Shown piece by piece: positions 51,391-61,687 of a stretch of 64,000 bases of DNA (position 1 is its first letter; each line of letters opens with the position of its first letter). The notes beneath the pieces are model-generated. The model saw only the letters and a list, made by a program, of their open reading frames with translations, was not told the origin of the DNA and did no database searches. Made by a program: the position numbers and the translations under genes. Location: NCBI RefSeq assembly GCF_056746865.1, contig NZ_CM163382.1, one strand, 5' to 3'.

Positions 51391-51416
51391 TTCGCACCTC
51401 ATCATCTGCACGCAAT

Positions 51417-51465
51417 ATACTATAGGGGGGTATGCTATATGTCAATGCATACCCCCCTATAGTAT
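51417..51465 (-). promoter_or_regulatory. candidate FrmR operator: perfect 19-bp inverted repeat with G6/C6 tracts, 11-bp spacer
   Basis: atactataggggggtatgc tatatgtcaat gcatacccccctatagtat, 27-75 bp upstream of frmR ATG. Confidence 0.75.
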
Positions 51466-51577
51466 ATAACACTGGAGAATAAAATTTATCCGGTGAATGT
51501 GGTCGGAAAACAAAGAGGAAAGGGGGTGGGGCTAATCGGCAGGGAAGGCCGCCCCGGATAGCGGGCGGCAGAAGCAA

Positions 51578-53045: not shown

Positions 53046-54108
53046 AAATAATCCAGATGGCATAAGCTAATAATACATACACAACGGAAAGCGGTGCTAA
53101 AGGCACCAACAACCAGCAACGATGAAACCAGGCGCTAAAAGCACCAATAACACAAACTACGCCGACCCAGATAAGCGGAAACATTGCCAACACCACACCA
53201 TACGGCCCGGTGGTGATGAATTCATTAAACCAGGTAGTGAGATAAATCCCAACGCCATAAAGCACAACCAACAGCATAGGAAATATACTGAAGATACCGA
53301 AGCGGCTAAATAAAAGCCTTTTATGCAGGCGCATACAGACCGCGTAGCCCACAATCCAACGCCGCCAGCGACGCCATTCCTCACGCGGGCTGTTGCATTC
53401 CTGTGGGTATACGATGCAGCGATTCGCCTGCCGAATACGATAGCCGTTTGCCACCAATGTCCAGGTGAGATCAAGGTCTTCGACTTTAGTACGATCAGAG
53501 AAACCGAACTTACGCAATACATCAGTACGGAACATCCCGCAGGCACCGCTGATAATAAACGGTGCGCCGCCCAGGAGCTGCTGTAGCGTGCGCTTCATAA
53601 CAATCATCGGCAACTTTACGGTCGCGCGGATGTGCGGTAACAGACCCGCGCCTTTCAACGCAGTAGAGGGAATGCCGCCTACGGCATCAGCACCGCGCTC
53701 TATTTCTGCAAGCATATAGCCCATTCCGTCTTGATCGGGCGGAACATAGGTGTCGGCATCACTTAAAAAAACCTGGTCGCAGGTGGCGTAATTGAGGCCA
53801 TTCATCAGCGCACCACCTTTACCGGTATTTTTTTGCGTGACGGCAACAAAGCGGTCGCCCCATTTGCGTTTGACTTCCGCCATGACCGCTTCGGTATTGT
53901 CCGTGGAGCCGTCGTTTACGCAAATTACCCGGCAAAAATAAGGATTACGCAGCAGATTATCCAGTGACTGTGCCAGACACGGGCCTTCGTTATAAGCAGG
54001 TATAATGGCGTCAATACAGCCTTTCTTTTGACTGGGTTTACGTTTTAGCGTACTTAAAAACCATAGCAACATTGCTATGGACATACAGATAAATATCCAG
54101 GTTTTCAT
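52912..54108 (-). CDS. yaiP: family 2 glycosyltransferase, membrane-associated
   Basis: ORF track 398 aa; GT-A motifs (VICVNDGSTDNT, DAD); C-terminal TM helices. Confidence 0.85.
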   Translation of the reverse strand: MKTWIFICMSIAMLLWFLSTLKRKPSQKKGCIDAIIPAYNEGPCLAQSLDNLLRNPYFCRVICVNDGSTDNTEAVMAEVKRKWGDRFVAVTQKNTGKGGALMNGLNYATCDQVFLSDADTYVPPDQDGMGYMLAEIERGADAVGGIPSTALKGAGLLPHIRATVKLPMIVMKRTLQQLLGGAPFIISGACGMFRTDVLRKFGFSDRTKVEDLDLTWTLVANGYRIRQANRCIVYPQECNSPREEWRRWRRWIVGYAVCMRLHKRLLFSRFGIFSIFPMLLVVLYGVGIYLTTWFNEFITTGPYGVVLAMFPLIWVGVVCVIGAFSAWFHRCWLLVPLAPLSVVYVLLAYAIWIIYGLIAFFTGREPQRDKPTRYSALVEASTSYSQPSVTGTEKLSEA

Positions 54109-54117
54109 GCAATTTGC

Positions 54118-54789
54118 TCAAAGAATCATTTTATGAATTACAAAGCCTTCACCCAGATCGCTATTGACCTGTTGCCCGCGAAATTGTGCAACTGCACGCA
54201 GGCGATCATGACGCATATAATCGCGTCGTTCCTGGCTTTTATGTTTTTTTAATGCAGCAAGTTTGACTGTGAAATATTCTTCTTTAACGGATTCAAAAAC
54301 CTGAGGCATAAATGAAAGCCAGGTGCTTGGGGTTTCGTAGCCGAGAATTTGTGGAATAGTTCGGCAGGCAACCATTGAAGCTTGATAAACAGCAAGATGA
54401 TCCTGATGGCGGTCGGCATCATGCATGGTATATACCCGCATGATTTCAACATCAGAAGGAATTTGATTTTTAATGATGTCTTCCAGGGCGGAAATCATAT
54501 CATTGAGCTGCAAATGCGCGCGGGTGTCAGCAAAATTAAGATGAATAGTTTGGTGGCACCCTAATATCTTTAGGGCGTTGCGCGATTCTTCATGGCGATC
54601 GATTATTCCATCTGTGCCAGAGTTGCCGGTAGTCATCACCACGGCTGCGATATAAATTCCTTTTTGCGCAAGACGAGCAAGCGACGCGCCACAGCCCAAT
54701 TCTATATCGTCAGGATGTGCGTCAATAGCAAGGATACCCTTTCTTTTATTTGCCGAAGAAAGGATGGCTGAATCTAAAACCTTATCCAC
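54118..54789 (-). CDS. yaiS: PIG-L/LmbE-family deacetylase
   Basis: ORF track 223 aa; N-terminal AHPDDIELG motif; exact start uncertain. Confidence 0.75.
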   Translation of the reverse strand: MDKVLDSAILSSANKRKGILAIDAHPDDIELGCGASLARLAQKGIYIAAVVMTTGNSGTDGIIDRHEESRNALKILGCHQTIHLNFADTRAHLQLNDMISALEDIIKNQIPSDVEIMRVYTMHDADRHQDHLAVYQASMVACRTIPQILGYETPSTWLSFMPQVFESVKEEYFTVKLAALKKHKSQERRDYMRHDRLRAVAQFRGQQVNSDLGEGFVIHKMIL

Positions 54790-55397
54790 TTAATGACACT
54801 CCATTTTATTTATTATACTACAAGCACAACGATGCCCGCAGAGACGTAATCTCTGGCACAGACAGATGCTAATTTTTAAGTGTTAAAAATTACTGATAGC
54901 TGAAAAATAAGGGGCTTTCAGGTACGGGGATACGACTGCGTAATCTTTTATGTAGTTCATATGTTAAGTGTTTGTGTGTTTGGTTTGTATAGTTATTTTG
55001 TTTTATATATTGTATTTAGATGTGATTTAGTTTGTCAATTAATTACATATTAAAAATATGTTCTAGGCACAAATATGGATTATATACATTATGTGAATGT
55101 ATTATGTGGTTGATTGAGAATGATACAGTTATATATGCAATGTGAATATAATGATTTCATTATATGTATTGCTGTTAATAAAATAAAAGACATTATGTTC
55201 TGCTTGTTTATGCATTAATAAAAATGAAGTGCAGTAACTTACTGAATTGTCAGCGTGGGTGTAATTGCATATTTAATCTTTCCTTTGCCGCTTTTTTGCT
55301 AAGAATAAAATCATCTGTGCGATAACGACTAATTCTTTTAATGAATGTTTTTATTCCTGAATACTGCTCCTATAACAAGACAGGGGAGCAGACAATC

Positions 55398-56360
55398 ATG
55401 GCAATTTCATCGCGTAACACACTTCTTGCCGCACTGGCATTCATCGCTTTTCAGGCACAGGCGGTGAACGTCACCGTGGCCTATCAAACCTCCGCTGAAC
55501 CGGCGAAAGTGGCTCAGGCTGATAACACCTTTGCTAAAGAGAGCGGGGCGACGGTGGACTGGCGTAAGTTTGACAGCGGAGCCAGCATCGTGCGGGCGCT
55601 GGCTTCAGGCGATGTCCAAATCGGTAACCTCGGTTCCAGCCCATTAGCGGTGGCAGCCAGCCAACAGGTGCCGATTGAAGTCTTCTTACTGGCGTCAAAA
55701 CTGGGTAACTCCGAAGCGCTGGTGGTAAAGAAAACTATCAGCAAACCGGAAGATCTGATTGGCAAACGCATCGCCGTACCGTTTATCTCCACCACCCATT
55801 ACAGCCTGCTGGCGGCGCTGAAACACTGGGGTATAAAACCCGGACAAGTGGAGATAGTGAACCTGCAGCCACCCGCGATTATCGCCGCATGGCAACGGGG
55901 AGACATTGATGGTGCTTATGTCTGGGCACCGGCGGTTAACGCCCTGGAAAAAGACGGCAAGGTGCTGACCGATTCTGAACAGGTCGGGCAGTGGGGCGCG
56001 CCGACGCTGGATGTTTGGGTAGTGCGCAAAGATTTTGCCGAGAAACATCCTGAGGTCGTGAAAGCGTTCGCTAAAAGCGCCATCGATGCTCAGCAACCGT
56101 ACATTGCTAACCCAGACGCGTGGCTGAAACAGCCGGAAAACATCAGCAAGCTGGCGCGTTTAAGCGGCGTGCCGGAAGGTGACGTGCCGGGGCTGGTGAA
56201 GGGGAATACCTATCTGACGCCGCAGCAACAAACGGCAGAACTGACCGGACCGGTGAACAAAGCAATTATCGACACCGCGCAGTTTTTGAAAGAGCAGGGC
56301 AAAGTCCCCGCCGTGGCGAATGATTACAGCCAGTACGTTACCTCGCGCTTCGTACAATAA
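55398..56360 (+). CDS. tauA: taurine ABC transporter periplasmic binding protein
   Basis: ORF track frame 55341..56360; start set to MAISSRNTLLAALAFIAFQAQA (320 aa); GGGGAG Shine-Dalgarno. Confidence 0.95.
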   Translation: MAISSRNTLLAALAFIAFQAQAVNVTVAYQTSAEPAKVAQADNTFAKESGATVDWRKFDSGASIVRALASGDVQIGNLGSSPLAVAASQQVPIEVFLLASKLGNSEALVVKKTISKPEDLIGKRIAVPFISTTHYSLLAALKHWGIKPGQVEIVNLQPPAIIAAWQRGDIDGAYVWAPAVNALEKDGKVLTDSEQVGQWGAPTLDVWVVRKDFAEKHPEVVKAFAKSAIDAQQPYIANPDAWLKQPENISKLARLSGVPEGDVPGLVKGNTYLTPQQQTAELTGPVNKAIIDTAQFLKEQGKVPAVANDYSQYVTSRFVQ

Positions 56361-56372
56361 AAGGAGGCGCGG

Positions 56373-57140
56373 ATGCTGCAAATCTCTCATCTCTATGCCG
56401 ATTATGGCGGCAAACTGGCGTTGGAAGATATCAACCTGACGCTGGAAAGCGGCGAGCTGCTGGTGGTGCTGGGGCCGTCTGGCTGCGGCAAAACCACCTT
56501 GCTGAATCTGATTGCCGGTTTTGTGCCTTATCAGCATGGCAGCATTCAACTGGCGGGTAAGTGCATTGAGGGACCGGGAGCAGAGCGGGGCGTGGTTTTT
56601 CAGAATGAAGGGCTGTTGCCGTGGCGTAATGTGGTAGACAACGTGGCGTTCGGCCTGCAACTGGCAGGTGTAGAGAAAGCACTGCGCCTGGAAATCGCGC
56701 ACCAGATGCTGAAAAAAGTGGGGCTGGAAGGCGCAGAAAAACGCTATATCTGGCAGCTTTCCGGCGGTCAACGTCAGCGGGTAGGGATTGCCCGCGCGCT
56801 GGCGGCGAATCCCCAGCTGTTATTACTCGACGAACCGTTTGGCGCGCTGGACGCCTTCACCCGCGATCAGATGCAAACTCTGCTGCTGAAACTCTGGCAG
56901 GAGACAGGTAAGCAGGTGCTGTTGATTACCCACGATATAGAAGAAGCGGTGTTTATGGCAACCGAACTGGTTCTGCTTTCACCCGGCCCAGGCCGTGTGC
57001 TGGAGCGGCTGCCGCTCAACTTTGCTCGCCGCTTTGTTGCGGGAGAGTCGAGCCGCAGCATCAAGTCCGATCCACAATTCATCGCCATGCGCGAATATGT
57101 TTTAAGCCGCGTATTTGAGCAACGGGAGGCGTTCTCATGA
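56373..57140 (+). CDS. tauB: taurine ABC transporter ATP-binding protein
   Basis: ORF track 255 aa; Walker [18 protein letters not shown]. Confidence 0.95.
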
Positions 57141-57964: not shown

Positions 57965-58598
57965 GTGAACGTCTGAGCATTACCCCGCTGGGGCCGTATA
58001 TTGGCGCACAAATTACGGGTGCCGACCTGACGCGCCCGTTAAGTGATAACCAGTTTGAACAGCTTTACCATGCGGTACTGCGTCATCAGGTGGTGTTTCT
58101 GCGTGAACAGGCCATTACGCCGCAGCAGCAACGCGCGCTGGCCCAGCGTTTTGGCGAGCTGCATATTCATCCTGTTTACCCTCATGCCGAAGGGGTTGAC
58201 GAGATTATCGTACTGGATACTCATAACGATAATCCGCCAGATAACGACAACTGGCATACCGATGTGACATTTATTGAAACGCCTCCTGCTGGGGCGATTC
58301 TGGCGGCGAAAGAGTTACCCTCGACTGGCGGCGATACGCTATGGACCAGCGGTATTGCGGCGTATGAGGCACTCTCTGTTCCCTTCCGCCAGCTGTTGAG
58401 CGGGCTGCGTGCGGAGCATGATTTCCGTAAATCGTTCCCAGAATACAAATACCGCAAAACGGAGGAGGAGCATCAACGCTGGCGCGAGGCGGTCGCGAAA
58501 AATCCGCCGTTACTACATCCGGTGGTGCGAACGCATCCGGTGAGCGGTAAACAGGCGCTGTTTGTGAATGAAGGCTTTACTACGCGATGGATTTGCCC

Positions 58599-59504
58599 CT
58601 ATATTTCCAGACACCTGTTATCACTTAACCCATTACTGGCCCGCTGCCGTAGATATTCCCGTGGCGAGCGATAACCCAGTGCACTATGCGGATGCCATTC
58701 GTTATAATGCTCGAACGCCTCTGCAAGGTTCTTTGCTGCCGTTAACCCGTCTGGTTTAGGCATGATACTGATGTAGTCACGCTTTATCGTTTTCACGAAG
58801 CTCTCTGCTATGCCGTTACTCTCCGGACTCCGCACCGCCGTGTTCTTCGGTTCAAGCCCCAACATCCGGGCAAACTGCCGTGTTTCATTAGCCCGGTAGC
58901 ATGAACCATTATCCGTCAGCCACTCTACTGGAGACGCCGGAAGCTCGTTGCCGAAGCGGCGTTCCACCGCTCCCAGCATTACGTCCTGTACTGTTTCACT
59001 GTCGAAGCCGCCCGTAGTGACTGCCCAGTGCAGTGCCTCACGGTCACAGCAGTCCAGCGCGAACGTGACTCGCAGTTTTTCTCCGTTATCACAGCGGAAC
59101 TCGAACCCGTCAGAGCACCATCGTTGATTGCTTTCTTTCACGGCCACTTTGCCAGTATGTGCCCGTTTCGATGGCGGTACAGCGGTTTTTCGCTCAAGCA
59201 ACAGCGCATTCTGGCGCATGATCCGGTAAACACGTTTGGCATTGATCGCAGGCATACCATCAAGTTCGGCCTGTCTGCGAAGCAGCGCCCATACCCGACG
59301 ATAACCATACGTGGGCAGCTCTCCGATAACATGGTGTATACGGAGAAGCACATCCGTATCATCTGAGTGACGGCTGCGGCGACCATCTTTCCAGTCATCG
59401 GTTCGTCTGAGAATGACGTGCAACTGCGCACGCGACACCCGGAGACAACGGCTGACTAAGCTTACTCCCCATCCCCGGGCAATAAGGGCGCGTGCGCTAT
59501 CCAC
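58599..59504 (-). CDS. insD: IS2 transposase OrfB (InsD)
   Basis: ORF track 301 aa identical to 14757..15662. Confidence 0.95.
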
Positions 59505-59872
59505 TTTTTTGCACGCCCGTATTCAACGGCTTCTTTAAGGAGTTCATTTTCCATCGTTTTTTTGCCGAGCAGGCGCTGGAGTTCTTTAATCTGCTTCATG
59601 GCAGCAGCAAGTTCAGAGGCAGGAACGACCTGCTCTCCTGCGGCCACAGCAGTAAGACTTCCCTCCTGGTATTGCTTGCGCCAGAGAAATAACTGGCTGG
59701 CTGCCACACCGTGTTGCCGGGCAACAAGGGAGACCGTCATTCCCGGTTCAAAACTCTGCTGAACAATAGCGATCTTTTCCTGTGTAGTACGCCGTCTGCG
59801 TTTCTCCGGTCCTAAGACATCAATCATCTGCTCTCCAATGACTAGTCTAAAAACTAGTATTAAGACTATCAC
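59462..59872 (-). CDS. insC: IS2 transposase OrfA (InsC)
   Basis: ORF track 136 aa identical to 14389..14799. Confidence 0.95.
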
Positions 59873-60157
59873 TTATTTAAGTGATATTGGTTGTCTGGAG
59901 ATTCAGGGGGCCAGTCTACGCGAATTGTTGATGTCAGCGAGAAAGAGAGCGAAGCCTTGTTAAGTTTTTTGTTTGCCCATATCACCAAACCGGAGTTTCA
60001 GGTGCGCTGGCGCTGGCAACCAAATGATATTGCGATTTGGGATAACCGCGTGACTCAGCACTATGCCAATGCGGATTACCTGCCACAGCGGCGGATAATG
60101 CATCGGGCGACAATCCTTGGGGATAAACCGTTTTATCGGGCGGGGTAAGGGGGAAAT

Positions 60158-61162: not shown

Positions 61163-61687
61163 GGTCTGCCTGATGTTTGTGGAATCGAGGGGCATAGTAT
61201 ACCTGAAGCAGGGTGGGGATGTTTTACGAAAGTTGTCGCGATGTTGACAAGAAGAGAATGAAAGAGAGTCCATGACATCTTTGTAATAGAAACAGCAATA
61301 ATTTCATATTCACTGAAAATATTTTTAATTTTTATTTATATCCCTGGATTATTGTTTTTACGGATTTGATTGCGTTATCAAAAACAGAATGATTTAAAGT
61401 TCATTGGTTATTGATAGATTATTTGTCTGGTTTGTGTGTTTGATATTTTAAATGCATATGCTTTAAAAATGGAACTCCTGTTAACTTGTTGAAACATCAA
61501 GCCTTTATCAATTTTTTCTTTGTGTGTTCCTCCGTGCTTTATATATGTCCGTAACCGGACTTCGGGGAAAGAATAATTGAACCATTCCTCTATAACGCCG
61601 CATAATCGTCAACGCGAAACATAAGATGTTTTCTATGCATTGATAATTGATGGATCAACTTATTACGTCCCTGAGGAGGGATGACAA

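Follow-up and report, generated by a model that had tools for sequence, protein, structure and literature searches.

The spacer between the divergent genes yaiS and tauA in a 64,000-nucleotide stretch of an E. coli genome (hereafter the window) is probably, with a likelihood that we put at about 80%, a composite of ~470 bp of upstream region belonging to an acquired gene cassette and ~137 bp of tauA promoter, two regulatory regions that would have been joined on insertion of the cassette. The spacer occupies positions 54790-55397 (608 bp) and extends exactly from the base after the yaiS GTG start on the left to the base before the tauA ATG, at 55398, on the right. To its left the gene order is yaiS, yaiP, yaiX, and yaiO, followed by frmR and frmA; to its right lies tauABCD. 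A sequence-only reading of the same DNA had named yaiS, yaiP, yaiX, and tauA, all of them correctly. The window is 99.98% identical to E. coli strain 118UI over ~10 kb. The locus has already been described for K-12, and the stretch analyzed here is another allele of the same feature. The coordinates of the features discussed below are collected in Table 1.

Table 1. Features of the yaiS-tauA spacer and its surroundings, in window positions
Feature	Position	Strand	Remarks
Variably present segment	51494-55261	-	yaiO-yaiX-yaiP-yaiS cassette and its AT-rich upstream region
yaiS open reading frame	54118-54789	-	GTG start
yaiS-start block	54780-54830	-	GTG 54787-54789; Shine-Dalgarno GGAGTG 54797-54802; TATAAT 54812-54817
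AT-rich core	54944-55243		23% GC; mapped counterpart of K-12 promoter island 383994_309
Distal yaiS-directed sigma70 promoter block	54950-55050	-	Hexamers and ~50-nt leader downstream
Small open reading frame	54961-55053	+	30 amino acids; hydrophobic product
yaiS distal promoter (predicted)	55009-55038	-	Near-consensus; -35 TTGACA 55033-55038; 18-bp spacer; -10 TACAAT 55009-55014
Imperfect 22-nt direct repeat	55080-55101 and 55129-55150	+	77% identical; 49-bp spacing
Promoter-like site toward tauA	55114-55141	+	TTGAGA-16-TGCAAT; K-12 has TACAAT (SELEX-paper site)
tauA upstream activator region and -35	55262-55359	+	Presumed Cbl/CysB binding region; -35 TTAATG 55338-55343
tauA core promoter and leader	55360-55397	+	-10 AATACT 55360-55365; short leader; Shine-Dalgarno GGGGAG 55383-55388

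Composition of the spacer and its K-12 counterpart

The sequence-only reading had described the region as more AT-rich than its flanks, and this was borne out. The GC content of the spacer was 30.3%, compared with 52.3% for the window, and no other 608-bp stretch of the 64 kb had so low a value; among 300-bp stretches, the core at 54941-55240 (23.0% GC) was the lowest. Relative to the window average, TpA steps were enriched ~2.7-fold, and so were A/T tracts of at least 4. Hexamers resembling a -10 element reached 40 per kb in the core versus 5.25 per kb window-wide, and the window's densest 300 bp for such hexamers was 54982-55281. The AT-richness of the spacer is real and, for this window, extreme. 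Full promoter-like sites in the spacer did not exceed the number in shuffled sequence (2 found, 3.5 expected), that is, they were no more frequent than composition predicts, so that an "island" of promoters is a consequence of AT-richness.

Motif counts were compared with those in 1,000 dinucleotide-preserving shuffles. The repeated motifs named in the sequence-only reading were present, but mostly at frequencies expected by chance at such a composition. TTATAT occurred in 4 copies in the spacer (P value = 0.04), TGTATT in 3 copies (P value = 0.07), and ATGTGAAT in 2 copies (P value of ~0.001, for a motif picked post hoc); only ATGTGAAT stood out against the shuffles, and both of its copies fall in one imperfect direct repeat (at 55080 and 55129). 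Repeated 7- to 10-mers were no more numerous in the spacer than in shuffles (P values of 0.14 to 1.0). The short repeated motifs of the spacer are largely a by-product of its composition.

The K-12 counterpart of the spacer is 1 of 78 published "promoter islands" (383994_309, yaiS(-)/tauA(+)), tied to predicted foreign genes and bound by H-NS "according to all studies" (Panyukov and Ozoline 2013, PMC3661553 Table 1). In H-NS ChIP data, a check that the sequence-only reading had proposed, the counterpart is bound in all of the ChIP-chip sets. Promoter islands in general show a low transcript output despite RNA polymerase binding (PMC3661553). Genomic SELEX with the RpoD holoenzyme gave the entry "yaiS < HNS > tauA," in which the HNS mark stands for an H-NS SELEX site inside the spacer, and the same paper assigns the promoters TTGACA-18-TACAAT to yaiS and TTGAGA-16-TACAAT to tauA (PMC3946193). 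A SELEX peak of the RpoS holoenzyme also lies in the K-12 spacer (PMC5493296). The occupancy by H-NS and RNA polymerase comes from K-12 data, and the allele here differs by ~13% (86.6% identity to the K-12 spacer overall, with a 9-bp indel).

K-12 coordinates were carried to the window through the alignment, with the tauA ATG taken as 384,456, which we assume to be its position in the published K-12 coordinate system and which fits the SELEX peak positions. On this mapping, the RpoS-holoenzyme peak falls at 54817, on a perfect minus-strand TATAAT (54812-54817). The yaiS hexamers of the SELEX paper, TTGACA-18-TACAAT, also occur in this allele (55038-55009, minus strand).

An AT content well above average over a few hundred base pairs, as in H-NS targets, is found here (30.3% GC, with a core of 23%). 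The high-affinity nucleation motif of H-NS has a TCGATAAATT-like consensus, and with at most 2 mismatches this consensus was matched once, at 55035, in the spacer. In a check for curvature, which the sequence-only reading had also put forward, AA/TT power at 9.5 to 11.5 bp, a crude measure of phased A-tracts, was not above that in shuffles (P values of 0.75 to 0.84). With one motif match and no phased A-tract signal, binding of H-NS would rest on general AT-richness.

Linkage of the AT-rich tract to the yai cassette

The upstream region assigned to the cassette makes up ~470 bp of the spacer (54790-55261). The left limit of the variably present segment was obtained from BLAST, and its right limit was inferred from the onset of homology to ancestral tauA promoters. 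The cassette encodes a PIG-L deacetylase, a GT2 glycosyltransferase, a hexapeptide acetyltransferase, and the YaiO outer-membrane barrel. In 594 complete E. coli genomes, frmR directly adjoins tauA, without yaiOXPS or the AT-rich tract, and E. albertii and Escherichia sp. E1V33 have the same frmR-tauA junction, also without the cassette and without the tract. In cassette-less taxa (Citrobacter, Klebsiella, Enterobacter, Kluyvera, and others), GC content was 39 to 48% over the 200 bp that precede tauA. The cassette adjoins tauA in E. whittamii and E. fergusonii too, and it is found at unrelated sites, away from tauA, in Citrobacter braakii and Superficieibacter, where the ~300 bp upstream of yaiS is 19 to 25% GC.

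These comparisons indicate that the AT-rich tract belongs to the yai cassette and not to tau, because AT-rich DNA follows the cassette even where the cassette is not beside tauA. The yaiS upstream DNA of Citrobacter and Superficieibacter had no detectable sequence similarity to the spacer of the window, and a tract that seems to travel with the cassette could instead arise again beside it. Promoter islands are tied to horizontally acquired genes, and so is this one, given that the cassette is variably present and occupies other loci elsewhere. The body of the cassette, at 47.6% GC, is only mildly AT-rich.

At least three arrangements of the DNA upstream of tauA occur in E. coli, which makes this site an insertion hotspot. 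In the third, seen in some E. coli such as strain 150, a different accessory island takes the place of frmR/yai; it carries an iron ABC transporter, a uhpC-like gene, and a two-component system, and the tauA promoter next to it is of the ancestral type.

Like E. fergusonii and Citrobacter, the window strain has an intact yaiS, with an open reading frame of 223 codons. In K-12, a stop codon cuts yaiS short at codon 186 and an IS2 copy sits in yaiX, which indicates that the cassette is decaying in K-12. The identical yaiS of strain 118UI is marked as a partial pseudogene in RefSeq, in what looks like an annotation artifact.

Constrained blocks and the tauA promoter

We aligned six alleles of the spacer: the window allele, K-12, two other E. 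coli alleles, E. whittamii, and E. fergusonii. Three constrained blocks emerged (54780-54830, 54950-55050, and 55260-55400), with variable DNA between them. Relative to K-12, yaiS and the genes to its left were 98 to 99% identical, identity per 100 bp fell to 70 to 89% over 54801-55300, the part that includes the indel, and 55301-55400 was again 99% identical. At four-fold-degenerate sites, the difference from K-12 was 2 to 6% in yaiO, yaiP, and yaiS and 15 to 16% in tauA, tauB, and tauC, with a breakpoint to low divergence near the yaiS start. The variable parts of the spacer differed from K-12 by ~11 to 29% per 100-bp bin, approximately what neutral evolution of the tau-side haplotype gives; since this is close to the four-fold divergence of the tau genes, diversifying selection is unnecessary as an explanation and was rejected. 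As a separate observation, tauA and tauB (55398-57140) have unusually deep haplotypes within E. coli (four-fold divergence of 15 to 18%), which beside the low divergence of the yai genes suggests recombination breakpoints near the yaiS start.

Everything that is conserved for tauA is confined to the last ~137 bp of the spacer (55262-55397), a block that is ~1.5% diverged from K-12 where the neighboring neutral rate is ~16%. The inferred tauA core, TTAATG-16-AATACT at 55338-55365, is of the sigma70 type with a weak -35 and lies directly upstream of tauA; its -10 and leader are near-identical in all Escherichia, whether the cassette is present or absent. From ~55266 to the ATG, the sequence aligned without gaps to the cassette-less tauA promoters of 8 other taxa of the Enterobacteriaceae, and the two kinds of promoter have the motifs T-run/CTAAnAA, TAATTCnTTTA, and AAATACTGC in common. 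Because the alignment is gapless, cassette-linked and cassette-less tauA promoters are probably homologous. BLAST homology to cassette-less E. coli resumes only 38 bp before the tauA ATG.

The comparison of promoter types covered the 75 bp (55285-55359) that separate the T-run from the -10. Here, the tauA promoter of cassette-less E. coli was 85 to 89% identical to those of Citrobacter and Klebsiella, and for this ancestral type identity fell to 71 to 75% against Enterobacter and Kluyvera. Cassette-linked and cassette-less E. coli promoters were 48 to 52% identical to each other, and the cassette-linked promoter was 48 to 55% identical to the ancestral type. In E. whittamii and E. fergusonii, the promoter is of the cassette-linked type with an ancestral-like -35. 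By parsimony, the K-12-type tauA promoter would be a derived variant linked to the insertion of the cassette.

A footprint of Cbl at the tauA promoter, obtained by van der Ploeg in 1997, reportedly extends from -112 to -68. A tauA transcription start at ~55372 would put the start of the conserved block (55262) at ~-110 to -112, in line with that footprint, and Cbl/CysB would then bind within 55262-55340. Local alignments of the tauA and ssuE promoters gave scores within the range of shuffles and revealed no Cbl box common to the two.

The sequence-only reading had seen the 600-bp region as consistent with a silenced tau promoter, a view that, taken for the whole region, does not agree with tau conservation limited to 55262-55397 and with a gapless alignment to taxa that lack the tract. 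In the corresponding alternative, which we regard as unlikely, the entire spacer is an extended tauA regulatory region in which H-NS silences tau and sulfur starvation, through Cbl/CysB, relieves the silencing. It is consistent with the occupancy of the K-12 spacer by H-NS, whose filaments can spread, with the presumed tauA activator sites directly abutting the AT-rich tract at ~55262, and with the fact that ssuEADCB, the other Cbl-dependent operon, also borders an H-NS-bound promoter island (27% GC). However, a conserved promoter that is not AT-rich precedes tauA in every cassette-less genome examined, so that tau regulation does not need the tract. Moreover, 55060-55260 evolves at approximately the neutral rate, and the tauA-directed promoter-like site within the tract lacks conservation: its -10 has here lost the key A at position 2, a base that varies among the alleles, and the site is therefore probably not constrained. 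This TTGAGA-16 site is probably one of the chance sites of the tract. Finally, a literature search found no reported effect of H-NS on tauA.

The conserved block at 54950-55050 was directed toward yaiS. Both hexamers of the predicted distal promoter were invariant in 6/6 alleles, that of E. fergusonii included, whose four-fold divergence from the window strain is 57%. The suggestion in the sequence-only reading that the region may control the divergent yai genes fits this near-consensus, invariant promoter. The conservation also bears on a further alternative, that the tract is nonfunctional filler made AT-rich by mutational bias and relaxed selection, with incidental H-NS binding. The variable segments do diverge at roughly the synonymous rate, neither k-mer repetition nor promoter-like sites exceed the compositional expectation, and an IS1 copy sits inside the yaiS-tauA spacer of E. 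coli EP91B (NZ_CP149810.1) without obvious harm. Against these points, the block stays ~90% or more identical across alleles with a four-fold divergence of up to 27 to 57%, and the DNA upstream of yaiS is again extremely AT-rich where the gene lies at unrelated chromosomal sites, and we consider the filler explanation improbable.

It is very improbable that the tract hides an unannotated gene, for a small hydrophobic protein or a small RNA: the open reading frame at 54961-55053 lies in the best-conserved block and has a hydrophobic product, but T-rich DNA yields hydrophobic reading frames by chance, RefSeq annotates nothing in the area, and we rejected the frame as a gene because it lacks a Shine-Dalgarno sequence, is cut to ~10 codons in E. 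fergusonii, and differs mostly by amino acid changes (in K-12, the first 28 codons carry 2 nonsynonymous changes and 1 synonymous one, counted by eye, and more C-terminal changes and a moved stop follow; in AF6, four changes, all nonsynonymous, translated by eye). A search for structured RNA over 54000-56000 gave no Rfam match at an E value of ≤1, and no terminator-like sites were found in the spacer. We also rejected a sigma54 promoter for yaiS: no match to TGGCAC-N5-TTGCW with 2 or fewer mismatches occurs in the spacer, and the nearest candidate, a GG..GC pair at 54853, is incorrectly spaced and lacks conservation in K-12.

Proposed silencing of yaiS and related systems

According to the composite reading, 55262-55397 would serve as the sulfate-starvation promoter of tauABCD, with a weak sigma70 core whose activity would require Cbl and CysB, activators of the LysR type, at sites immediately upstream, and 54790-55261 would be the upstream region of the horizontally mobile yaiS-yaiP-yaiX-yaiO cassette. 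The near-consensus yaiS promoter would be intrinsically strong, such that RNA polymerase could bind it unaided, and H-NS polymerized on the 23%-GC core would silence this promoter together with many chance promoter-like sites. We infer such silencing of yaiS for the window strain as well. The published behavior of promoter islands is a match for the silencing proposed here. To our knowledge, no counter-silencing regulator has been described for yaiS. The idea of an H-NS-silenced tau promoter, put forward in the sequence-only reading, thus stands in part: the H-NS occupancy in K-12 (ChIP-chip and SELEX) speaks for silencing on the yai side but not on the tau side.

A more elaborate history, which we offer as speculation and think unlikely to be correct, is that insertion of the cassette was followed by a rewriting of the tauA activator region, that Cbl/CysB have a second role in holding back the adjacent H-NS filament, as a boundary or counter-silencer, and that the two haplotypes, one with the cassette and the derived promoter and one with neither the cassette nor a change from the ancestral promoter, are an old polymorphism across Escherichia species. 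If this were true, the boundary role of Cbl/CysB would hold in most E. coli, K-12 included.

Several known systems resemble the locus. K-12 promoter island 383994_309 lies at the orthologous locus and shares its flanking genes and yaiS promoter hexamers with the window spacer; in contrast to the window, where the cassette is intact, K-12 has a disrupted yaiS and yaiX, and occupancy is known from K-12 only. The locus also resembles the general model of xenogeneic silencing by H-NS (PMC3946193, PMC3661553), in that AT-rich DNA holding a promoter of intrinsic strength lies 5' of a cassette of variable presence and the K-12 counterpart binds H-NS, whereas the cassette body here is only mildly AT-rich and the spacer has neither an enrichment of high-affinity motifs nor a curvature signal. 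The Cbl/CysB-dependent tauABCD promoter of K-12 is near-identical to the right-hand 137 bp but covers only about a fifth of the region flagged in the sequence-only reading.

The tauA upstream region can also be compared with "switched" intergenic regions, or regulatory switching (Thorpe et al. 2018, PMC5890482, citing Oren et al. 2014). As in such regions, tauABCD is preceded by alternative, poorly alignable upstream DNA among E. coli isolates; here, however, the switch goes with a cassette insertion, and the two promoter versions align gaplessly. The tauA case fits the less conservative "upstream" definition of PMC5890482 and not the strict gene-pair one. The ssuE/elfA spacer of K-12 offers another parallel, in that a Cbl-activated sulfonate operon is divergent from an accessory fimbrial operon; that spacer has a GC content of 27% and is listed as an H-NS-bound promoter island (PMC3661553 Table 1), but it is a different locus and has no detectable sequence similarity to the tauA promoter. 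The cysB/ymiA spacer is listed as an H-NS-bound promoter island too (PMC3661553 Table 1); these listings may be a coincidence.

With an AT-rich, H-NS-bound region upstream of acquired genes and a well-studied sulfur-starvation promoter next to it, the locus is a textbook case. Its modest new points are the association of the AT-rich tract with the cassette, the insertion hotspot, and a K-12-type tauA promoter that appears to be derived. The K-12 tauA promoter is not the version carried by most Enterobacteriaceae or by about a tenth of E. coli, and because it is lineage specific, regulatory conclusions drawn from it may not transfer. Three or more arrangements make the tauA upstream site convenient as a natural system for the effect of a neighboring silenced region on a core promoter.

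Other features of the window were recorded alongside the spacer. An IS2-like element of ~1.33 kb (58588-59918), 95.8% identical to a K-12 IS2 copy, interrupts tauD, whose reading frame departs from TauD after ~209 codons; strain 118UI lacks the insertion. With tauD interrupted, the taurine dioxygenase of the window strain is probably inactive and its tau promoter would drive a broken operon. A near-perfect long palindrome (ATATACTATAGGGGGGTATGC...GCATACCCCCCTATAGTATAT, 51415-51467) lies just upstream of frmR and is kept in cassette-less strains; it is presumably the frmRAB operator/promoter. The sole perfect match to the sigma54 consensus TGGCAC-N5-TTGCW in the window is TGGCACACCCCTTGCT (20187-20202, plus strand), which by its map position we take to be possibly the prpB promoter. 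Between hemB and an autotransporter gene lies the 300-bp stretch that ranks second in the window for AT content (61249-61548, 27.7% GC); it could be another H-NS target.
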